This document shows, one piece after another, positions 128 to 43,062 of a stretch of 48,179 nucleotides of DNA. The position numbers were made by a program, and so were the translations under genes. Every line of letters starts with the position of its first letter. Positions within the stretch are counted from its first letter, which is position 1. The stretch is from sequence record OZ503099.1. One strand, written 5' to 3'. Source of the stretch: a phage. The notes beneath the pieces are model-generated. The model saw only the letters and a list, made by a program, of their open reading frames with translations. It did no database searches and was not told the origin of the DNA.

Positions 128-1154
128 TTGGCTTAACCTGCCACGCAGTTACAGATGATACGGTCCCTGTTAAACTGTAATACAACGCATCTGACATTAA
201 CCCGCGAGTTGAGATTAACGCAATGTGTTTCCATGTGCGGATGTTACCTCTGGAGTAATACGCGCCGATACCGGAATCAAACACGCACACATTATTGTTT
301 AGCGTGGTGTCATCTACCAGGCCGTCAATCTGCATTGATTGCGCGAGTTTACTTTGTGAACTAGACCCGTTTATCTTAGATAATAGCGCAGCGCCTTCAG
401 TAGTGCCGGAGTCATACACCGTAACCGGGGTGGATGGATCGGTTATAACTAATTGCCCTGTCCAGTTAACATCGTAGATAAATTCTGAATTCTCCATTTT
501 AAAAGTTAAACCGGGTATCACAAGGTCTTCACTTCCACCAATTCTGTAAACCGGATTACCTGGAGTGGTATCAACTACCTTTCTTATCCCTTGAGCATAC
601 GCATTTGCAAAAATGGCGTTTAATTGCGAGGTAACAGACGTTGCCCCTGTCTTATCCAAATCATCAAAAGAGTTAAGATCTAACCATGTTATTACTTTCG
701 ACAACTCCTGGCGTAATACAGCATCACCGACACTTACAAGATGAGTCACATCAACCGCCCATGATGTGCTGTTAACCCCTGTGGTTGTGTATGGAGGTGT
801 TGTTGATGCGTTTAAGCGCCAGAACTCTCCTTGATAGCGAATTACCTGGTTAATGGCATCAATTGTATACGGGCCGTTTTCATAATCACCTAAAAATTGA
901 TAGCCTGAATTTAAGAGGAACTGCTGAAAGCGCAATTCTTTATTTTCCTGTGACGCAACAAATTCTGCCTCACGCTCATATTGTGCTGTCTGAAACTGTT
1001 TATCCCTGCCGGTATTCGTCAGCCTATGCGCACCAAATCGGTCGGCGTAGTAATCAGCACTGCCATTGACCTCTTCATCAATCTTCCCGGCGTTAAACTT
1101 CAGGTCGCGCGGGTCTTCCGATGGAATTGGTTTATTAGTTGGTGTGGTAGCCAT
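1..1154 (-). CDS. Tailspike/tail fibre protein, N-terminal part (ORF continues across the junction into 46498-48179)
   Basis: ATG at 1154 (MATTPTNKPIPSEDPRDLKFNAGK...); minus frame open to position 1 and in phase with the ORF at the window end (hand-translated across the junction). Confidence 0.6.
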   Translation of the reverse strand, partial: MATTPTNKPIPSEDPRDLKFNAGKIDEEVNGSADYYADRFGAHRLTNTGRDKQFQTAQYEREAEFVASQENKELRFQQFLLNSGYQFLGDYENGPYTIDAINQVIRYQGEFWRLNASTTPPYTTTGVNSTSWAVDVTHLVSVGDAVLRQELSKVITWLDLNSFDDLDKTGATSVTSQLNAIFANAYAQGIRKVVDTTPGNPVYRIGGSEDLVIPGLTFKMENSEFIYDVNWTGQLVITDPSTPVTVYDSGTTEGAALLSKINGSSSQSKLAQSMQIDGLVDDTTLNNNVCVFDSGIGAYYSRGNIRTWKHIALISTRGLMSDALYYSLTGTVSSVTAWQVKPNTTIIKLPKFNFEEKPHAVNVLLKGLSRYEIWGPNVSKRPLL

Positions 1155-31386: not shown

Positions 31387-32811
31387 TTATCGCCTGCGAC
31401 GGATTAGCATTCCACTGCCACGCTGAACGATGTGGTCATTGAGTGCATAACGAACCGCGTCCCAGTAGTGGTTATATGCATCAACAATATCAGTCAGCAC
31501 ATTCCCTGTCAGCTTATCAACTTTGTAGCTGTACATTGCCGCCTCATTCTGCATCTCCTTGCATCGTTCGTGAATGACAATGCTGTCGCAGCCGCGTAAC
31601 CATGTCACGCCATCCTCGACACTGCCGGGCCATTTTGTGCATGGATGAATGTCAAAGCCAGAGCGCTTGATGTGGCTGATAGTTTCTGGTCGCGCGCAGT
31701 CGGCATACCATCGTGCGCGCTTAGCCATCGGGAATGATTGCTCCATCGCAGCTGGCGTGTCGGTAATCTCAAGCCCCACCTTTCCGTACTCGCGATTAAT
31801 ATAAATATTGCGTCGCCCGCCGGGTAACTCTTCGATGTAAACCTCAACCATTGCGGTTGGATCGGTGGAAAACCCAAAGTCCATCCCGAAGTATGGTCCA
31901 TGCCATTCAGGCTTGACCTCGAAGTTATCAATGAGCCATTTTCCGCCAAATACCTGTTCGTCGCTACGCTTGTTGAATTTTCCTTCATACACCCAAAGGT
32001 AGCGATCATAATCCACTGCCTTCATCTGGTTCATGTGCTGTTTAAGTTCTTCCGTGAACCACGGGTTGTGAACGTAGTTAACATTAACAACAACGATGTC
32101 ATCATCCTGATATATGCCATCTACCATCTTGTCGATGTAAGGCTCAACAAAGTTAGTCCATGTCGGGTCCGTCTCTTTGTTCGGGTTAAAAACAATAATA
32201 ATTTCAGAACCAGCGGCGCGCACCGTTGGAATTAACGTATCCCATGACACCTGACTGATGTTTTCGGATTCTTCACAGAACACGTCTGTAAGGCCAGCCA
32301 TGCCTTTGATTGCGGTTATGTTTCGCCAAAGGCCACGAAAAACAAACTTTGATCTCGTTGTGTGGTGTGTTATCTCGCCATCCACGCAACGATATTCCTG
32401 AGTGTGCCCCTTCCTGTTTATCTCATCAACCAGTTCGGCATAGCTTGATTCTTTGATTGAGTTCTGTATCTCACGGAAGCATCCGACGCGGCTGTTGCGG
32501 AATCTTGCCTTTTCTATAAGGTAAGAAACAACGTTAGCCGTCTTTCCGCTGCCCCTACCCCCATAGAACACCTTGAAACGGCGAGGATAAAGCAGCAGCT
32601 CCATTCGCTCAGGTATTAATATTGTTGGCTTCTCGTCTGTTTCTGACACGCCAGTGGCTGTCATTTTAAGGCACTTAACCACATTCGGTGTACCGTCAGG
32701 CAATAGCTTATCGACAATACCGAAAACAGAAGACTCTGGTTTTGCAGTTGAATTGCCTACTGCTTGCTCAAGTTTTTCTATCGCAACGCTTGAGAGTCTT
32801 TTACGCGCCAT
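31387..32811 (-). CDS. Terminase large subunit
   Basis: Walker A YGGRGSGKT near the N-terminus, conserved acidic nuclease-type residues in the C-terminal half, 474 aa. Confidence 0.8.
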   Translation of the reverse strand: MARKRLSSVAIEKLEQAVGNSTAKPESSVFGIVDKLLPDGTPNVVKCLKMTATGVSETDEKPTILIPERMELLLYPRRFKVFYGGRGSGKTANVVSYLIEKARFRNSRVGCFREIQNSIKESSYAELVDEINRKGHTQEYRCVDGEITHHTTRSKFVFRGLWRNITAIKGMAGLTDVFCEESENISQVSWDTLIPTVRAAGSEIIIVFNPNKETDPTWTNFVEPYIDKMVDGIYQDDDIVVVNVNYVHNPWFTEELKQHMNQMKAVDYDRYLWVYEGKFNKRSDEQVFGGKWLIDNFEVKPEWHGPYFGMDFGFSTDPTAMVEVYIEELPGGRRNIYINREYGKVGLEITDTPAAMEQSFPMAKRARWYADCARPETISHIKRSGFDIHPCTKWPGSVEDGVTWLRGCDSIVIHERCKEMQNEAAMYSYKVDKLTGNVLTDIVDAYNHYWDAVRYALNDHIVQRGSGMLIRRRR

Positions 32812-33319
32812 GATTGCAAAATTCTCCCTGATGTTTCTCCCTGAACTGTCTTATTGCACGATCAGCATCATCAATTGATGAAAACCTACCTATTTTGTGA
32901 TACTTGCCAAATAACCAGCATTGGGCTATCCACTTTCCCCTTTGATTATCCCAGCTAACTCCCTTGATTCCAGATGTGTTGTTTTTTTGCATCCTCTTGT
33001 TCCACTGATTCTGTGATGTTGTGGCCAGTCTTAAATTTTTAATCCTGTTATCGTTGCGAATGCCATTAATGTGGTCAACTTGTTCTTCAGGCCAAGCTCC
33101 ATAGACGTAAAGCCATGCCAGCCTATGAGCAAGATAGATTCTTCCACTTATTCCTATTTCCACATACCCCTTCTTAGGTTTTATCCTGCCAGCAATGCTT
33201 CCAGAATTTATTCTTCTGCTTGGCTTACTTAACCACGTGAAAACACCAGTGTCTGGATTGTAATGCAGGAGGTGTTTAAGTCTCTCTTGAGTGATGGGCA
33301 ACTCTTTTAATGATGGCAT
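32801..33319 (-). CDS. HNH homing endonuclease with AP2-type domain
   Basis: DHINGIRNDNRIKNLRLATTSQNQWN plus SGIKGVSWDNQRGKWIAQ; paralogue of 4710-5201 and 40538-41128; sits between putative small and large terminase genes. Confidence 0.75.
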   Translation of the reverse strand: MPSLKELPITQERLKHLLHYNPDTGVFTWLSKPSRRINSGSIAGRIKPKKGYVEIGISGRIYLAHRLAWLYVYGAWPEEQVDHINGIRNDNRIKNLRLATTSQNQWNKRMQKNNTSGIKGVSWDNQRGKWIAQCWLFGKYHKIGRFSSIDDADRAIRQFREKHQGEFCNHGA

Positions 33320-33422
33320 GATTGAATCCTCGGTTACAGGCGGTCTATTGGTTGGATGCGGCAGCCCGGAGACCAATCCGGGCAGGGAGCTACCCTTTGC
33401 CGCATTAATTATTATAAATCAG

Positions 33423-33866
33423 TTACTGTTGCTGCTCAAGTAATTTCTCCAGTCGCTCAAGGCGTGCTGCGAGTTCGGTTAACTCTTTCACGTCAAGACC
33501 AACCTTAATCATAGACACAACCTGAGACGCCACGTCAATTGGGAGTTCTCCACTGGAAACGGATTGAATGACATCCTCTATCTGCTCAACTGGAGTGGCA
33601 TCTTTTCGATATTTAAAGTTAACCGGAGGTGCCATGCTTTTTTGCACAGGGCTGATGCGCAGGAATATTTCCTTCAGCATCTGCACACCCTGAGTCGGGT
33701 TTTCCTCCGTCATCCTGATTGACGTCATGATGAATGCGTCAAGGAATTCCTCCTCACCAAGCCCGCATCGCTTTAATGCTTCAATAAGCCTGTTTCTGTA
33801 GCTTAATCCTCTGCCAGCAGGCTGGTACTCAGAGGAAAATTTCATTACAGGGTTCGGATTAGCCAT
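33423..33866 (-). CDS. Putative terminase small subunit
   Basis: 147 aa upstream of HNH plus large terminase; coiled-coil C-terminus; assignment by position. Confidence 0.4.
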   Translation of the reverse strand: MANPNPVMKFSSEYQPAGRGLSYRNRLIEALKRCGLGEEEFLDAFIMTSIRMTEENPTQGVQMLKEIFLRISPVQKSMAPPVNFKYRKDATPVEQIEDVIQSVSSGELPIDVASQVVSMIKVGLDVKELTELAARLERLEKLLEQQQ

Positions 33867-35485: not shown

Positions 35486-35727
35486 ACCATAACCCCCATT
35501 ATTTCTTCGTAATAGCCATCTTCTTCAAACTCAATCTTTGCGATTTTGAGCGCATCATCATCTGTGATGTCAATCGCTTTGAATTTGCACTTTGCCAGCA
35601 CGATGCAGCCAGAAAGAATTAGCCACTTATTCCACCAGTGGACTCTCTTGATTGTCCTGCTTGCATACATTTTGTTCTGCACTATCCAGAACTCGTATGT
35701 TTTCACTTTTTCCATATCAATCACCAT
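35482..35727 (-). CDS. Hypothetical protein
   Basis: 81-aa ORF; overlap with neighbours. Confidence 0.4.
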   Translation of the reverse strand: MVIDMEKVKTYEFWIVQNKMYASRTIKRVHWWNKWLILSGCIVLAKCKFKAIDITDDDALKIAKIEFEEDGYYEEIMGVMV

Positions 35728-35920
35728 CTACTCTGCGATTCCAGTCGACGACTGCCTGTTCTGCAGACTCCCTGAAGTTTGTCATTCTCGCCCCGCATGA
35801 GCATCGAATGAGAAAGTATGGTCTTTCATGGTCAGATGAACGCCATAGCTTAACTTTTGGTTCACCACCGCAAAACGGACAACTCTTGATAATCAACTCA
35901 CTCATATAATCACCATTCAA
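35717..35920 (-). CDS. Lar-family-like zinc-ribbon protein (possible restriction alleviation)
   Basis: IIKSCPFCGGEPKVK...YFLIRCSCGARMTNF: CPFCGG and CSCG motifs as in Lar-family proteins. Confidence 0.5.
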   Translation of the reverse strand: MNGDYMSELIIKSCPFCGGEPKVKLWRSSDHERPYFLIRCSCGARMTNFRESAEQAVVDWNRRVDGD

Positions 35921-35940: not shown

Positions 35941-36123
35941 TCAGAATACGATAATCAGCTCATCCATTACTCTGCGCTTACCTTCACCATTAAACACGCG
36001 CACAACGCGATTTACGCGGATAGATTCCATTGCATTGCGTGCCTGTTTGCTCATAAAGTTCTGCGCGCCAACGTGACCGAGTTCCGGCTCCAGTTTCTCA
36101 CGACGATAGATAGTCTTTGCCAT
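35941..36123 (-). CDS. Hypothetical basic small protein
   Basis: 60-aa ORF. Confidence 0.4.
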   Translation of the reverse strand: MAKTIYRREKLEPELGHVGAQNFMSKQARNAMESIRVNRVVRVFNGEGKRRVMDELIIVF

Positions 36124-36218: not shown

Positions 36219-36404
36219 TCATTTCTTAGAAGCCTTATATTCATCTTCAGTCATCGCATATGCCTCGCAAATCATGTTCGCTGCATCAATGATTGCATTT
36301 GAACGCATGTCAGCAGGAAGACTTGCAACCTGTTGTGATAATGCCATGCATATATCGCTGAACAACTTCATCTGGTCGATGTCGTACGTGCTTTCCTCTT
36401 TCAT
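36219..36404 (-). CDS. Hypothetical acidic small protein
   Basis: 61-aa ORF; first gene downstream of minus-strand promoter. Confidence 0.4.
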   Translation of the reverse strand: MKEESTYDIDQMKLFSDICMALSQQVASLPADMRSNAIIDAANMICEAYAMTEDEYKASKK

Positions 36405-36434
36405 CTCTTCACCCCCGTTTGTTACGATGAGTTC

Positions 36435-36463
36435 AATCTACATCAATGATGATTCTACGTCAA
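36435..36463 (-). promoter_or_regulatory. Minus-strand promoter for the long leftward transcription unit
   Basis: On the minus strand TTGACG (36458-36463), 17 bp, TAGATT (36435-36440); two copies of the recurrent 13-bp motif. Confidence 0.45.
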
Positions 36464-36539
36464 TATAATAGCTAAAATAAACATCTATGTTAGTTGTCAC
36501 TCACGGTTATTAATTTTGTAACTCATTGATTTTTAATAG

Positions 36540-36890
36540 GTGCATTTATCCGTTTTATCCCGCTGATTTTTTCATTTATCCCAAAGATTTCGTTATAAAT
36601 CATAACATTGCGTCGTTTTATCTCATTTAACCTTATCCTGAATCTAATAGAGAGAAATATAATTTTTGAAATGGATTTTTGGTGAGTGAAAAAGATGGTA
36701 AGAAAAACGGGGTAAATGGGATAAATAATAGTATATATCAATAATAATATTAATAAATACATATACTTATCAACAAAATTACTTATCCCAAACTTTCCCC
36801 GTTCTTATCCCGATTTATACCGAATTGCATTTAGCGGATAAGTGATTTGCTAATGTTGCGGCTTGGTTGACATGGAGAATGGATAAGAAT
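36540..36890. promoter_or_regulatory. AT-rich region with clustered TTATCC (DnaA-box core-like) repeats; candidate replication origin
   Basis: TTATCC at 36546, 36555, 36576, 36633, 36783, 36805 (plus) and GGATAA at 36719, 36836, 36881 (minus); very AT-rich block 36721-36780. Confidence 0.4.
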
Positions 36891-36895
36891 AAGAT
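36867..36895 (+). promoter_or_regulatory. Promoter of the P1-P4 operon
   Basis: TTGACA (36867-36872), 17 bp, TAAGAT (36890-36895); GGAGG RBS 5 nt before ATG 36925. Confidence 0.5.
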
Positions 36896-36924
36896 ACTTT
36901 ATGTATAAGTGCGCGGAGGTTTTA

Positions 36925-37146
36925 ATGAAGGTAACAATGGCAACTCAATTTGATCTGGATAATGCAAGGAAGAGAACAAAGTGGCCTTTTAGCAGGATGA
37001 AGCCTGGAGACATTGTGTGCATATCAGAAAGTGAATTCAGCAATACAAAGGTTCAGAGAAAAGCCCATGCTTATGGGCATGCAACAGGAAAATCATTCAC
37101 ATGCAAATCAAGTGATGGGAAAGTAATCATCAAAAGGATCTCATAA
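36925..37146 (+). CDS. Hypothetical small protein P1 (73 aa)
   Basis: Strong RBS; stop overlaps P2 start (TAATG). Confidence 0.5.
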   Translation: MKVTMATQFDLDNARKRTKWPFSRMKPGDIVCISESEFSNTKVQRKAHAYGHATGKSFTCKSSDGKVIIKRIS

Positions 37147-38633
37147 TGTCGATAAAAACCATTTATGACCTGACTTCTGACATAAACAAAGACAGATGGT
37201 ACGACATCACAAAACCACCTGGACTTGCTGGTGAAATTGCTGATGATATTGCCGCTGGTGAGGTTCGTGAACAGCCAAGACTTAGAGCTGTTGCTGCTCT
37301 TCATGAACTGATTATTGCCAGCAAAGGCAAGATTAAAACACCAAGCGGTATGAAGGGAAATCTCCTCACTATCTGTATCGCAGATTCAGCAGGAGGAAAG
37401 GATAGATCACAAAGCCATTTCAAAATCATGGCGAGAGATATCGAAAAGGGTATGCATGTCTTTGGTCGGATTGCATCATCAAAAGATATCGGTCGGTCAC
37501 TGATAAACCATGATGGAGTTGCGACATTTATTATTGATGAATGTCATGGATTGTTTGGTGTAATGACGCAGAAGAATGGCGCAGCTTACATGGCTGAACT
37601 TGGTTCTGAAATTCTGTCTGTTTATTCCGACAGGCTGAAGAAGTTTTCAGACCTTGATGCTGTTAACGCCAAAGAGCAGCTTGAGAAGGAACTCAAGAAG
37701 CTGAAAGCTGAAGTTAAGGATAAAGGGATTGTAGAGTCAGAATACCGCAGACGCGAGCAGCAGCTTGAGCGTGAAATATTGTGGCCAATTCAGCAGGGTA
37801 TCGAAGACCCGATATTCTCGATGATGTGCTTTTCAACACCAGAGAAGCTGTCCAGTATTATTTGTTCAGAAAATATCGGAACAGGCTTGATTGGTCGAGC
37901 AATCTTCATTAAAGGGAAAGACGGTCGCGCAAGGAAATTACGCAAATATGGCCATAAAACACCACAGTCTCTAATAGATAAAATGAAGGCAGTGGAAAAA
38001 TCATCACCACAGGTTGCAAGATACGAAAACGATGTTGTGCAGGCGCTGGCTGAATCACTTGATGACAGATTTGAGGAACTGGTAAATGATGTTTCTCTTG
38101 GCGCAGTAATTGCCCGTTCATTCGAGCAGGTTGAAAAAGTTGCGACTGCACTTTCTGCTGGGAATAAAGGTGTAATTACAGAAGAAATGCTGATGTGGTC
38201 ATTCTGTTTTGTTTGTGAAAGCCTGACAGACGTTATGAGCATGCTAAAAGTGAACGAGAGCCAGGAAGAACTCGGAACAATGGCCAGATGGAATGAGATT
38301 AAAAATAGAATTGAGAATATCCTTTCTGGAAGAACGAAGGATGACAGGATGCCTCAGTCTATTCTCGTTCAGAGGGCTGTTAAAACAAAATCCCTTAAGG
38401 CTCTCGCTGATGCAATAGCAAGATCTAATGGGGAAGATTTTTCCTATGGAGCAAAAACTCTTGTTACTCCAGTAATACAATCCCTCATGGCATCTCGTGC
38501 AATTGATGCTGTAGGTTGCGGTTACTGGATTAACGACGCAAGTAAATTTGAAGGCACGAAAATGAGCGTTAAATTCACGCAAATTGTTGATGGGATTGGC
38601 ATGAATATGGCTGCAATGAGGGGTTGGCGATGA
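37146..38633 (+). CDS. Hypothetical protein P2 (495 aa) with degenerate nucleotide-binding-like motifs
   Basis: CIADSAGGKD and FIIDECHGLF segments about 45 aa apart; rare-codon (AGA/AGG/ATA) rich; no family I can assign. Confidence 0.55.
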   Translation: MSIKTIYDLTSDINKDRWYDITKPPGLAGEIADDIAAGEVREQPRLRAVAALHELIIASKGKIKTPSGMKGNLLTICIADSAGGKDRSQSHFKIMARDIEKGMHVFGRIASSKDIGRSLINHDGVATFIIDECHGLFGVMTQKNGAAYMAELGSEILSVYSDRLKKFSDLDAVNAKEQLEKELKKLKAEVKDKGIVESEYRRREQQLEREILWPIQQGIEDPIFSMMCFSTPEKLSSIICSENIGTGLIGRAIFIKGKDGRARKLRKYGHKTPQSLIDKMKAVEKSSPQVARYENDVVQALAESLDDRFEELVNDVSLGAVIARSFEQVEKVATALSAGNKGVITEEMLMWSFCFVCESLTDVMSMLKVNESQEELGTMARWNEIKNRIENILSGRTKDDRMPQSILVQRAVKTKSLKALADAIARSNGEDFSYGAKTLVTPVIQSLMASRAIDAVGCGYWINDASKFEGTKMSVKFTQIVDGIGMNMAAMRGWR

Positions 38634-39404: not shown

Positions 39405-39434
39405 AAAACCCTCCAGTCGGAGGGTTTATTTTAT
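39405..39434. terminator. Rho-independent terminator (bidirectional)
   Basis: AACCCTCC-AGTC-GGAGGGTT hairpin followed by TATTTTAT. Confidence 0.6.
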
Positions 39435-40384
39435 CTGCTTACTGACATTTTCTCTATCAACTCGCCAGCGTCATAAATCTTTCTTCTGATTCTCTTCGCC
39501 ATCCTGATTGTGTCAGCATCATCAGGCAGCATCACCGGTAGTCCTGCGTTTTCCGCAGCGCAAAGTTCGTCAAATTTATAATTAACTATGCAGCGTAACC
39601 GTGCTTTCGTCTCATCACTAACAGAACGCACCACTTCCCACATGTTTTCCGGCGACCAGCAACACCAGACATGAGCGCCAGTGAAGTAATGGCACTTCCA
39701 CGCATCGGCATAATCAGACACCAGGTAAATGAACTTTCCGTTGTCTTCTCCGATTGGGCTTATCGCGCCGCGCGTGAGTTTGCCGTTGATGGCTGAGTCC
39801 TTGTTGTATCCTGCGCGGAAAAACGTTTTGAATGAATCACCATCCATGCCAATGAATGCCACGTTGCACGGCTTCATTGTGTCAGCTCGCATCATCTCAA
39901 CCGCAATAAGCTCTCCAGATTTACCTCTGGCAACATTAACGTCGCAACCAATACCATTTATCAACGTCCACTCATTCATCGCTACACGCGTCGTTTTAGC
40001 CATGATTGCGGCGACTTCCTGTTCGGTGATGAAGTCATCGTTGTAATTTATCTTCGGCATCTCCTTCCTGATTGCCTCCAGCTTTTCGCATGGGTGCATG
40101 TTCAGGAATCCTCCCAGCGCCTCCAGTGCTTCAGGAAAGCTCATGCCTGAAAGTTTCATCAGCCAGTTCATGCCGCTGCCGGAGCCGCACTGATTGCAGA
40201 TTGCACCGCCATCGCCTTTTGTTTCTAAGTTGTCATCAAAGCGATATCTGTCTGTTCCACCACAACTTGGACATGGCTGGTGCTTACCATTGAAAACTCT
40301 GCTATCCACATTGACGATAGACATGATGGCAGCCTGCCAGTTATTTCTCATTAGAGGCTCGATTTCCTTCCAGTCGTACTTCAT
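39431..40384 (-). CDS. DNA primase-like protein (zinc-ribbon plus putative TOPRIM)
   Basis: CPSCGGTDRYRFDD...CNQCGSG zinc-binding motif near N-terminus; downstream acidic E and MDGD elements; adjacent to helicase operon. Confidence 0.5.
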   Translation of the reverse strand: MKYDWKEIEPLMRNNWQAAIMSIVNVDSRVFNGKHQPCPSCGGTDRYRFDDNLETKGDGGAICNQCGSGSGMNWLMKLSGMSFPEALEALGGFLNMHPCEKLEAIRKEMPKINYNDDFITEQEVAAIMAKTTRVAMNEWTLINGIGCDVNVARGKSGELIAVEMMRADTMKPCNVAFIGMDGDSFKTFFRAGYNKDSAINGKLTRGAISPIGEDNGKFIYLVSDYADAWKCHYFTGAHVWCCWSPENMWEVVRSVSDETKARLRCIVNYKFDELCAAENAGLPVMLPDDADTIRMAKRIRRKIYDAGELIEKMSVSR

Positions 40385-40396
40385 AAAATCTTCCTG

Positions 40397-40479
40397 TTGA
40401 CGATGATGTAGATTCATTGTAATTTACTCACATGAAACGCGCAAGCGTTCTTGACATGAAACGCAACTGAGTTTAACAT
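40397..40479 (+). promoter_or_regulatory. Tandem promoters of the helicase/recombination operon with CATGAAACGC direct repeat
   Basis: TTGACG (40397-40402), 17 bp, TAATTT (40420-40425); TTGACA (40451-40456), 17 bp, TAACAT (40474-40479); repeat at 40431-40440 and 40455-40464. Confidence 0.4.
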
Positions 40480-40537
40480 CGAGGATAAGAAATGGCTATC
40501 ACTCTGAAAAAGTGCAAAAATTGTGGGGGAGAATTCT

Positions 40538-41128
40538 ATGGAACATCAAGAGCTGAGTTTTGTTGTTCAGGATGCAGACTCAAAAGTTTCCGAGAAAAAA
40601 AGAAGGGTGCTAAAAATTGATGTTGATTACGTGACATCAAGGTTAGAGGTTGTCAATGGACGCCTGTATTGGAAAAGGAGAGATGAATTAACGCCATACC
40701 ACAAAACATGGAATGCACGGTATCCGGGGAAACCTGCTGACAATAAGCTTGACAAAATGAATTACAGGCTTGTGATGATTGATGGTGTTTATTATAAAGC
40801 ACATAGAATTGTATGGGCTATATGCAAACAGCAAGACCCTGGAGCTATGGACATTGATCACATCAATACAATTAAGAACGATAACAGGATAGAAAATCTC
40901 AGGTTGGCTGATTGCAGTCAAAACAAATGGAATAAAGGCTTATCATCAAATAACACTAGCGGATACAAAGGTGTTAGTTGGTTCAAAAGGGAGAAACGGT
41001 GGGTTGCTCAGATTTGGGTTAGAGGTAAAAAGAAAGTTATTGGTTATTTTAATACCCCTGAAGATGCACATAAAGCGTATGCAAAAGCATCATCAAGTCT
41101 TCATGGTGAATTTGGTAGGGTAAAATAA
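40538..41128 (+). CDS. HNH homing endonuclease with AP2-type domain
   Basis: DHINTIKNDNRIENLRLADCSQNKWN plus SGYKGVSWFKREKRWVAQIW; stop overlaps helicase start (TAATG). Confidence 0.7.
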   Translation: MEHQELSFVVQDADSKVSEKKRRVLKIDVDYVTSRLEVVNGRLYWKRRDELTPYHKTWNARYPGKPADNKLDKMNYRLVMIDGVYYKAHRIVWAICKQQDPGAMDIDHINTIKNDNRIENLRLADCSQNKWNKGLSSNNTSGYKGVSWFKREKRWVAQIWVRGKKKVIGYFNTPEDAHKAYAKASSSLHGEFGRVK

Positions 41129-43062
41129 TGCATAAAATAGACAAGATGATTTCAGAAATTGATATAGATAAATTAAAGAAATCAATAAAACTAGGCTCCA
41201 TAGAGCCATATGATTACCAATGGCTTGTTTACGCAAAGTGCGCTGAGGTTATTCGTAATTTTGGAAAGAAACCTGAACCAAGCTATGTTACAGCGTCTGT
41301 TTCATCAGGAAAGACCGTGATGATTTCAATGCTTTGCAGTAGATTTCAGGATATGGGGTGGGAGGGTCTTGTAATCTCAAGGCAGGGCGAGATAGCTGAG
41401 CAGAATGCTGAAATGATGTGGGAGTGTGGTGTAAAAAACTCTCTTTATAGCGCATCTCTTGGTAGGAAAAGTACAGCATACCCTATTATATGCGGCACTG
41501 AAGGAACAATAGTTAACGCACTTTTTGATAAAAAAGATGAATCAAATGGTGACGTTAAGAAAGGTGGGTTGAGTGATTTTACCCCAAGATTTTGCCTTTG
41601 CGATGAAGGGCACCAAGTACCGTGGCAGGATATTGTCGGTGGTGATCCAACAACACAGTATGGCGTTATACTGACCGAGTTAAATCGACGCTGTAAGGCA
41701 AAGTATGGCCATGACATGATAACTATCGGATTCACTGGAAGCCCTTTCCGTGGCACCGAGTCAATGAAAGGTGCGTATTGGAAGAATGAAATAATAAACA
41801 TTGACACAAAGTACATGGTAGATCGCGGATTTGTTGTTCCAACAATCTTTGGCCTTCATGATGTTGATGATTTGCAATACGACCTTTCATCATTTCATGG
41901 CTCTGATGTTGACGGAACGCAGGATTTCACCGCAGAACAACTCAAGCAGATGCAGAAAGAAATTCTTGATCAAGGTACGCTAACGCAAAAAATAATGATG
42001 AAGGTTGTCGAACTAACAAAAGACCGGAATGGGGTTCTGATTACCTGTGCAGGGAAGAAGCACTGCTTGGAAGCCGCTAAATATTTACCTGAAGGAAGTT
42101 ATGCGATTGTCACCGAAGATATGGGGCAAAAAGCAAGGCGCAAAGCTCTAAAGGATGCGTACACTGGCAAAATAAAATACACATTCCAGATCGCCGCGCT
42201 TACAACTGGCGTTAATATCCCCTTATGGGATGTAAGCGTGATATTACGAAAAATAATGTCGCTAACTCTCCTTGTCCAGCTTCTTGGTCGCGGTATGCGC
42301 CTGCTGAAGAAGGAGCAAATTGATGCCGGGTATCATAAAGAAGACCATCTGGTTCTTGATTTCTCAGGAACGATGTTTGAGCTTGGTCAGTTGTATGAAG
42401 ACCCGATTCTGGAAGAGGCAGAAGCGCAGCGTTCAAAACGCAGTGGTGAACAGGTTCCGTGCCCGAAATGCGGAACGATGAACAGCCCATACGCTCGTCG
42501 CTGCATTGGCAAAGATGCATTGTCGCCAGATGGTCGTTGCGAAGAGTTCTTCAGTTACATCCGTTGCGGTTTCGATAAGCACGGCATCCGTATTTTTGAT
42601 GATGGATGTGGTACTAAAAACGACCCTACTGCGCGTTATTGCCGACATTGCGATCATGTTTTGCGCGACCCGAATGCTGCACTGAATGAGCGTGCGTATA
42701 CCGACAATGAATGGGCTGATGTTATGGACTTCAAAGTACAGTTGACGAAGGACGGAGAGGGAATTTTATATCGCTACTGGATTAATCGTTGTGATGGCAA
42801 AGAAGGCTGGGCTAATGAAGTTTTCTATCCATACGGTGGCGCAACTCACATGAAAAACATGTTTAAGGCAAAGGCGGTTTTTCCTCACCTTGATGATAAG
42901 TCAATGGCGGGTAAAATCCTGAAATGCCAGAACGCCAAGCAGTTCATGATGTATGCGGGATTGATTAAAGCGCCAAAACGCATCACTCATCGCATCAACG
43001 ATAAAGGCAGAGACATAATCCACCGCAAAGAATTTAAAGGAGAACAAAGTGAAGCAGCTTGA
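41128..43062 (+). CDS. ATP-dependent DNA helicase (SF2, DEAH-type) with C-terminal Cys-rich region
   Basis: Motif I ASVSSGKT, motif II CDEGHQ, motif VI QLLGRGMR; C-terminal CPKCG...RCIG and CRHCDH zinc-ribbon-like pairs. Confidence 0.8.
   Translation: MHKIDKMISEIDIDKLKKSIKLGSIEPYDYQWLVYAKCAEVIRNFGKKPEPSYVTASVSSGKTVMISMLCSRFQDMGWEGLVISRQGEIAEQNAEMMWECGVKNSLYSASLGRKSTAYPIICGTEGTIVNALFDKKDESNGDVKKGGLSDFTPRFCLCDEGHQVPWQDIVGGDPTTQYGVILTELNRRCKAKYGHDMITIGFTGSPFRGTESMKGAYWKNEIINIDTKYMVDRGFVVPTIFGLHDVDDLQYDLSSFHGSDVDGTQDFTAEQLKQMQKEILDQGTLTQKIMMKVVELTKDRNGVLITCAGKKHCLEAAKYLPEGSYAIVTEDMGQKARRKALKDAYTGKIKYTFQIAALTTGVNIPLWDVSVILRKIMSLTLLVQLLGRGMRLLKKEQIDAGYHKEDHLVLDFSGTMFELGQLYEDPILEEAEAQRSKRSGEQVPCPKCGTMNSPYARRCIGKDALSPDGRCEEFFSYIRCGFDKHGIRIFDDGCGTKNDPTARYCRHCDHVLRDPNAALNERAYTDNEWADVMDFKVQLTKDGEGILYRYWINRCDGKEGWANEVFYPYGGATHMKNMFKAKAVFPHLDDKSMAGKILKCQNAKQFMMYAGLIKAPKRITHRINDKGRDIIHRKEFKGEQSEAA

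Follow-up and report, generated by a model that had tools for sequence, protein, structure and literature searches.

A candidate phage replication origin whose short repeats vary with a neighbouring helicase-like protein

The DNA considered here is a phage sequence of 48,179 nucleotides (record OZ503099.1), referred to throughout as the window. It contains a 520-bp divergent intergenic space (36405–36924) in which an array of short repeats is arranged around a block of AT-rich DNA. Small early genes that are read leftward end at 36404, and a rightward operon begins with a small open reading frame (ORF) at 36925 (or 36901), followed from 37146 by the gene of a 495-aa protein, here called hel495. 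An initial annotation, made from the sequence letters alone, had placed the repeats between leftward and rightward transcription units, and this is indeed where they lie. The 3.5 kb surrounding them share 92–95% identity with Skatevirus-cluster phages of Salmonella, among them Seszw_1, Skate, 64795_sal3 and NX263, while the hosts of more distant relatives are E. coli, Shigella, Citrobacter and Klebsiella. No lysogeny genes were noticed in the parts of this siphophage that were examined.

The initial annotation counted nine copies of the hexamer TTATCC/GGATAA, in both orientations, within about 350 bp. There are exactly nine such copies within 36546–36886, six on the + strand (36546, 36555, 36576, 36633, 36783 and 36805) and three on the − strand (36719, 36836 and 36881), and the sequence contexts quoted for them, ATTTATCCC and TCTTATCCC, are correct. 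A tenth copy, at 36957, falls inside the next ORF. In 5000 dinucleotide-preserving shuffles of 36405–36924, the hexamer occurred on average 0.63 times and at most five times, and not one shuffle reached nine copies; in 2000 shuffles of the same region, the commonest hexamer of any sequence was found no more than seven times. Every other 350-bp stretch of the window holds at most two copies. Chance is excluded as the origin of the repeats.

A motif logo built from the nine sites reads Y-TTATCC-c. The base preceding the hexamer is always C or T, position 7 is a C in five of the nine, and positions 8 and 9 carry no information. When YTTATCCC is searched for with at most one mismatch, 12 copies are found in the 343 bp of 36545–36887, versus 67 in the remaining 47.8 kb. 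These 12 sites are referred to below as boxes or iterons B1–B12 (Table 1).

The hexamer is also about twofold over-represented outside the cluster, with 34 copies in the whole window versus roughly 18 expected, mainly on the + strand. This is probably an effect of codon use or composition (e.g., GAT-AAx on the coding strand of leftward genes) rather than a sign of scattered binding sites. Three good YTTATCCC-type boxes (583, 651 and 999) occur in 420 bp of the window (583–1006), a grouping that is not significant once the number of windows is considered.

The boxes are laid out in a regular fashion. Five direct boxes form a distal cluster (36545–36639), two boxes on the − strand lie to the left of the AT-rich block (36709–36725), and three on the + strand lie to its right (36782–36821), so that the boxes nearest the block point outward on both sides. 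Spacings between neighbouring boxes, taken from their coordinates, are mostly near whole helical turns (9, 21, 42, 9, 22 and 10 bp). The block itself had been described as over 80% AT between 36721 and 36780, and its actual AT content there is 90%. The segment 36722–36781 is the least stable 60-bp duplex of the 48-kb window, with a nearest-neighbour free energy of −55 kcal/mol versus a mean of −81 kcal/mol (z = 5.3), and the AT block also ranks as least stable at window sizes of 40 and 100 bp. A search of the region against Rfam returned no family, only far sub-threshold miRNA-like matches that are due to the inverted symmetry around the AT block.

A promoter scan places a leftward early promoter (PL) and a rightward promoter (PR, 10/12 matches) at opposite ends of this arrangement. 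The boxes and the AT block lie between the two, and therefore occupy the roughly 400 bp that separate them. Box B12 falls within the PR spacer.

Table 1. Positions of the boxes, the AT-rich block, the promoters and the associated genes in the window (L-numbered coordinates refer to related sequences).
Feature	Position	Strand	Remarks
Iteron B1	36545–36552	+	TTTATCCG; distal direct cluster; position kept in alignment
Iteron B2	36554–36561	+	TTTATCCC; same column reads TT(C/T)AACCC in Klebsiella phages
Iteron B3	36575–36582	+	TTTATCCC
Iteron B4	36617–36624	+	TTTATCTC, one mismatch; TTTATCCA in NX263, TTCAACC in Klebsiella phages
Iteron B5	36632–36639	+	CTTATCCT
Iteron B6	36709–36716	−	TTTACCCC, one mismatch; proximal left, inverted; ATTCAACCC in Klebsiella phages
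Iteron B7	36718–36725	−	TTTATCCC; abuts AT block; kept in 6/6 aligned phages
AT-rich block	36726–36781		56 bp, 89–90% AT; proposed DNA unwinding element
Iteron B8	36782–36789	+	CTTATCCC; abuts AT block on right; kept in 6/6 aligned phages
Iteron B9	36804–36811	+	CTTATCCC
Iteron B10	36814–36821	+	TTTATACC, one mismatch; TTTATCCC in Skate, NX263 and PSH-1, TTCAACCC in Klebsiella phages
Iteron B11	36835–36842	−	CTTATCCG
Iteron B12	36880–36887	−	CTTATCCA; within 17-nt PR spacer
Promoter PL	36435–36463	−	TTGACG, 17 nt, TAGATT; promoter scan; close to leftward genes
Promoter PR	36867–36895	+	TTGACA, 17 nt, TAAGAT; promoter scan; serves small ORF and helicase operon
Small ORF	36925–37146	+	73 aa (81 aa from 36901); translationally coupled to helicase gene; matches phrog_28399, a family with no assigned function
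Small-ORF versions	window 36925–37146; L017:484–831; L005:1952–2167; L012:3043–3321; L007:2036–2568		
hel495	37146–38633	+	495 aa; predicted MCM-like AAA+ ATPase core; winged-helix-like C-terminal domain at about aa 396–470
Primase	39431–40417	−	Zn-ribbon PF08273; Pfam and PHROG matches; outside variable cassette; conserved replication partner

Conservation of this layout was assessed by aligning the region with those of Skate, NX263, PSH-1 and two Klebsiella phages (six sequences in all). The AT block, over its aligned core (36726–36772), is the best conserved part of the region, with an identity of 94% in the Salmonella relatives and 79% in the Klebsiella phages. The corresponding values are 81% and 65% for the boxes and 72% and 53% for the spacers. 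Box B12 is present in Skate, degenerate in NX263, and absent in PSH-1 and the Klebsiella phages. The −35 block of PL (ATATTGACGTAGA) is invariant in the alignment, and PR is kept in Skate and NX263. Seven boxes of the Klebsiella phages have TT(C/T)AACC in the columns where the Salmonella phages have TTTATCC, and three stay TTATCC. Such a concerted change within a conserved layout is what would be expected of sites that co-evolve with their binding protein.

A wider view was obtained from nine metagenome contigs carrying hel495 homologues of 67–80% identity. One of these (L025), which starts about 110 bp upstream of the gene, was left out, and eight remained. The contigs that reach far enough upstream contain a region of about 500 bp with two inverted boxes, an AT block, three direct boxes and one inverted box, and the layout around the AT block is the same in eight metagenome relatives. 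An inverted box at the relative position of B11, for example, recurs in L018, L019, L020, L021, L022, L024, L026 and L027. Taken over all of the hel495 homologues examined, the upstream order is distal boxes, two inverted boxes, AT block, three direct boxes and one inverted box. What changes is the sequence of the box. It is TTATCC in the window, Skate, Seszw_1, NX263, PSH-1 and L021 (13 copies in the latter); TTACCC in L018, L019 and L026; a mixture of TTATCC and TTACCC in L027; TTCCC(C) in L020 and L024; and TTGTCC in L022 and L023. Together with the TTCAACC of the Klebsiella phages, five iteron variants (TTATCC, TTCAACC, TTACCC, TTCCCC and TTGTCC) occur among hel495 homologues that are 67–99% identical.

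Other members of the phage group carry different repeats in the same slot, again in both orientations and around AT-rich DNA. The slot of swi2 contains 13 copies of AGTTACCGG; those of ViII-E1, Akira and IME207 contain TGCCCCAC, which is entered as a repeat_region in the ViII-E1 record; that of Bas77 contains TTACCGG; and that of Sf11 contains GCTTCCC. PL forms the left border of this variable cassette and lies within about 60 nt that are common to all cassette types, the first ~60 nt of the intergenic region being 88–95% identical even in phages with other repeats. In the phages that bear the other repeats, the protein in the position of hel495 is distantly related or unrelated. For instance, the swi2 helicase is a distant homologue of hel495 (hhalign probability of 97%, ~24% identity), and the IME207 protein in this position is a DUF3987 protein, for which a profile comparison of hel495 with the DUF3987 helicase gave no match. 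Within the phages of the TTATCC family, hel495 is 87–99% identical.

None of the other proteins encoded nearby behaves in this manner. The flanking leftward genes are 83–100% identical in phages carrying other repeats. The primase, tried as a candidate iteron binder, was rejected, as it is conserved across different cassettes (92–94% identical in IME207, swi2 and Bas77 despite their other repeats and other helicases). The protein in the position of TerS (33423–33866) is 98.6% identical in Sf11 despite the different repeats there, but only 51% identical in Seszw_1, whose repeats are the same. The small ORF upstream of the helicase gene was rejected as a specificity determinant, since by BLAST it is unrelated to its counterparts in PSH-1 and the Klebsiella phages, though these phages have iterons of the same family and helicases that are 87–99% identical. 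Finally, two ORFs downstream of hel495 (p121 and p137) were discarded as iteron binders on account of their absence from Klebsiella phage VLCpiS13f, which lacks the small ORF too. With the leftward genes, the primase, the TerS-position protein, the small ORF and p121/p137 all failing to follow the repeats, hel495 is the sole protein whose presence and type do so.

In database records of relatives, hel495 is variously labelled "DNA primase", "replicative DNA helicase", "helicase" or "hypothetical". An AlphaFold2 model from 16 sequences has a predicted template modelling score (pTM) of 0.76 and a mean predicted local distance difference test score (pLDDT) of 76. The predicted structure of the ATPase core resembles MCM and the AAA+ pre-sensor II insert clade, and invariant positions in the alignment are candidates for a Walker A motif (SAGGK85), a Walker B motif (D131-E132) and an arginine finger (R251). 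A long helical hairpin is predicted as an insert between Walker B and sensor 1. Comparison with PHROG profiles aligns hel495 with the C-terminal halves of primase-helicase fusions, and its two most distant homologues are fusions with Zn-ribbon/Toprim or Prim-Pol/PriCT domains that also show weak signals of DUF3987. Among long stretches, the last ~100 residues vary most, with a mean pairwise identity of 52–58% versus 70–86% in the ATPase core; a short segment (265–297) is likewise variable among the homologues. Within the C-terminal domain, the wing-tip residue of the VG-x-GYW motif is only suggestive as a link to iteron type: proteins with TTATCC boxes have C or S there, those with TTACCC and TTCCCC have K or R, and those with TTGTCC have Q, but P0014 and P0010 do not fit.

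The segment 36545–36887 is probably a phage replication origin of the self-loading initiator-helicase type, with iterons recognized by the phage's own hel495, a reading to which a probability of roughly two in three can be assigned. The initial annotation had named two possibilities for the array, a replication origin with initiator boxes and an unwinding element or iterons for a phage initiator. Iterons for a phage initiator beside an unwinding element are favoured on comparative evidence, because the layout is conserved, the repeats change in step with the helicase-like protein next to them, and no part of the region is less stable or better conserved than the AT block; use of the segment as an origin is inferred from these features. 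In the mechanism envisaged, hel495 would bind the YTTATCCc boxes through its C-terminal winged-helix domain, and assemblies forming on both sides of the AT block, the weakest duplex of the genome, would open it. The melted strands would then allow hel495 to encircle single-stranded DNA and act as the replicative helicase, possibly in both directions, while the separate Zn-ribbon primase would prime synthesis. The distal cluster of five iterons probably raises the local concentration of initiator or has a role in control. Box B12, in the PR spacer, is a possible autoregulatory site through which the initiator may repress its own operon.

Several points weigh against this interpretation. The repeats and hel495 co-vary as parts of one cassette; since the intergenic region adjoins the gene, joint inheritance would be expected even if the two did not interact directly. 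No match to hel495 was found in sequence searches of Pfam, NCBIfam and PDB, and its helicase activity therefore rests on a predicted fold with a mean pLDDT of 76. Among 11 sequences, no single position in the C-terminal domain separates the iteron types cleanly, and conservation of the boxes exceeds that of the spacers only moderately. A location between divergent promoters, and a box inside the spacer of one of them, would suit an operator array equally well. Searches of the accessible literature yielded no experimental evidence of binding or origin activity in this phage group, and nothing relevant on an origin in Jersey-, Skate- or ViII-E1-like phages. Cumulative GC skew, a check put forward with the original proposal, does reach its minimum at 36–37 kb, but the same place is where the direction of transcription switches; the check does not discriminate, and this confounded minimum was not used as evidence.

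The strongest competitor to an origin is an operator array pure and simple, in which a phage DNA-binding protein (possibly the winged helix of hel495 or another protein of the cassette) regulates PL and PR, the AT block is promoter or UP-element DNA, and replication starts elsewhere. The region does lie between divergent promoters with a box in the PR spacer, and lineage-specific sites that co-vary with a protein are typical of repressor-operator pairs as well. However, 10 of the 12 boxes are more than 25 bp from either promoter, spread over some 400 bp that neither would need, and the box in the PR spacer is missing in PSH-1 and the Klebsiella phages. In addition, the only co-varying protein has a predicted helicase ATPase core, and a symmetric layout about the least stable duplex would serve no evident purpose in repression. 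Since autoregulation by an initiator is compatible with an origin, the operator explanation counts as a rival only in its exclusive form, and in that form it is unlikely.

Much less probable is a packaging (pac) or terminase site, or another structural site (e.g., for binding of a nucleoid protein), unrelated to initiation. The database records of several relatives are linearised in or near the same intergenic region, and sites of small terminases are often short repeats; record ends, however, are more likely choices of annotators, and the region is about 2.5 kb away from the terminase genes. The terminase site was rejected on the identities given above, by which the TerS-position protein does not co-vary with the repeats.

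The remaining alternative is a host DnaA-dependent origin, in which the hexamers are weak DnaA boxes where DnaA oligomerises and opens the AT block. As in oriC-type origins, the hexamer TTATCC (the first six bases of the E. coli DnaA box, TTATCCACA) is found next to an AT-rich element, and near-DnaA boxes with at most one mismatch number 22 in the whole window versus 12 in shuffles. The initial annotation had rightly noted that the match extends over only six of nine positions; each copy has two to three mismatches to TTATCCACA, and whether the search was exact, degenerate or tolerant of one mismatch, not one of the nine hexamers qualified as a DnaA box. Neither TTATCCACA nor TTWTNCACA occurs in the region, where the only near-match (TTATCAACA at 36767) is not conserved. 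Unlike DnaA boxes, the sites lack the 3′ half of the 9-mer and are extended on the 5′ side: the logo is informative at the 5′ Y and at C7, and not at positions 8 and 9, where DnaA needs CA. Moreover, homologous positions in relatives read TTCAACC, TTACCC, TTCCCC or TTGTCC, the sequence following the lineage of the phage helicase, and syntenic cassettes of Salmonella and E. coli phages bear wholly different repeats. The specificity of DnaA is essentially invariant among bacteria and is not known to vary as the box cores do, so an origin of the DnaA-box type, one of the two readings first offered, is unsupported and the least probable explanation of all.

An origin that is read by its own helicase has precedents. 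The closest are the Rep/ori replicons of Staphylococcus aureus pathogenicity islands (SaPIs), especially those with the Rep2 type, which is helicase superfamily 6 (SF6)/MCM-like, and the related Cch helicase of SCCmec. SaPI origins possess 6–12 iterons of 5–6 nt and a central AT-rich region with at least two oppositely oriented iterons per side, and SaPI Rep is a self-loading initiator helicase with a C-terminal winged helix that melts the origin independently of a loader (PMC9371898). The phage region resembles them in having 12 YTTATCCc sites (one mismatch at most) near a predicted helicase gene, 260 bp upstream of hel495; in the two − strand and three + strand boxes that flank a 90%-AT block in opposite orientations; in the predicted combination of a hexameric-helicase-type ATPase with a C-terminal winged helix; and in an iteron sequence that co-varies with the initiator between elements. 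It differs in the placement of the proposed origin, which precedes the helicase operon and is bounded by divergent promoters instead of following rep directly, and in having five further direct iterons in a distal cluster. The element is also a siphophage rather than a satellite, and it infects a Gram-negative host. Furthermore, hel495 differs from SaPI Rep in its insert between Walker B and sensor 1, a predicted long helical hairpin, and shows no detectable sequence similarity to the Rep and Cch chains in PDB.

Two further systems offer partial parallels. The alpha protein of satellite phage P4 combines primase, helicase and origin-binding functions, its C-terminal DNA-binding domain recognizes repeats of about 8 bp, and its helicase fold belongs to superfamily 3 (SF3). 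Like alpha, distant homologues of hel495 carry primase fusions, and the primase of the window phage has the P4-type Zn-ribbon PF08273. Unlike alpha, the primase (− strand) and helicase (+ strand) of this phage are separate genes on opposite strands, and the fold predicted for hel495 is MCM-like and not SF3. No second, crr-like repeat cluster was found in the window, in which the next-best 350-bp stretch has two hexamers; the trio of boxes at 583–1006 would be the place to seek a counterpart of the second site of P4. The lambdoid O/ori-lambda system and the iteron plasmids (RepA/pSC101, P1 and RK2) also place iterons beside an AT-rich unwinding element, frequently autoregulate through iterons, and exchange initiator and origin between relatives as a specificity cassette. 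Their initiators are non-helicases that recruit host DnaB, and their iterons are 17–22 bp long, those of lambda lying inside the O gene. The boxes described here, on the other hand, are 7–8 bp long, and the protein proposed to read them is itself predicted to be a helicase.

SaPIs, SCCmec-related elements, P4 and eukaryotic DNA viruses already provide well-known examples of this kind of system; what the present case adds is the natural series of iteron variants together with the exchangeable cassettes that share one primase. A broader and more tentative proposal, given slightly less than even odds, takes both together. Under it, hel495 would stand for a clade, so far uncatalogued, of self-loading MCM-like initiator helicases from siphophages of enterobacteria; their winged helix would have switched its target among at least five iteron variants, with identity in the ATPase core remaining at 70–86%. 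At least four cassettes, each pairing an origin with a helicase, would be interchangeable in the same slot and would all rely on a single conserved primase, possibly via the octamer TACATATA.

This octamer has a single copy in the 48-kb window, at 36758–36765 within the AT block. Most relatives likewise have one copy, in the same strand orientation, in their syntenic AT-rich DNA (L008:2822, L010:2467, L011:2606, L012:2756 and others), and this includes cassettes with unrelated helicases and repeats. Because the primase is the replication protein that is conserved across those cassettes, a guess can be made that TACATATA is a primase start or recognition site.

If the broader proposal is true, the variants would constitute a natural series for deciphering the recognition code between initiator and iteron. 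Confirmation of the origin would provide the first defined origin and initiator for Skatevirus-like siphophages of Salmonella, E. coli and Klebsiella, a group employed in typing and therapy, and would carry over to lytic enterobacterial phages a scheme known from Gram-positive satellites and SCCmec, in which short iterons are served by a self-loading MCM-like helicase. Closely related helicases with different iterons would then be a tractable system for the evolution of initiator specificity, and swappable cassettes served by one primase would have a bearing on the mixing of replication modules in phages.

Existing annotations could be corrected as well, both in the labels given to hel495 and in a spurious 79-aa ORF (36523–36762, − strand) that runs across the iterons and AT block. 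The latter is labelled "hypothetical" or "putative membrane protein" in the Skate and seszw records and was rejected as a gene. Stops interrupt it in PSH-1 and the Klebsiella phages, and it is therefore most likely an artefact of annotating AT-rich DNA.

A small ORF of 71–115 aa is located directly upstream of the helicase gene, overlapping its start, in every cassette. Its versions, unrelated by BLAST even where the helicases are 87–99% identical, have in common their size, their position and a loose sequence pattern, and the product may be a fast-evolving partner of the helicase. In the DUF3987-type cassette, the small upstream ORF (L010:2611–2883, gp85 of IME207) has a weak match to the AP2 domain (E 7e-4), and the intergenic regions of L008 and L010 contain palindromic pairs of the form GTGGGGCA(N7)TGCCCCAC plus TTACCC-like boxes. 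A two-protein recognition system is suggested for this type of cassette.

Farther to the left, the early block encodes a Lar-like restriction-alleviation protein and a DUF7540 protein (35717–35920 and 35941–36123, both on the − strand). The DUF7540 protein is 95–100% identical in most Salmonella and E. coli relatives despite their different origin cassettes, with lower values in IME207 (66%) and in the Klebsiella phages and L022 (45–53%).

Two other points in the window appear to accept inserts. An ORF of the HNH/AP2-like homing-endonuclease type (32801–33376, − strand) lies between the terminase genes, and a 201-aa ORF (40523–41128, + strand) lies between the primase gene and that of a RadD-like DEAD-box helicase (41128–43062). 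The endonuclease inserts at both points differ in relatives, with HNH types in swi2 and Bas77 and endonuclease VII in VLCpiS13f, which suggests that these are hot spots for mobile endonucleases.

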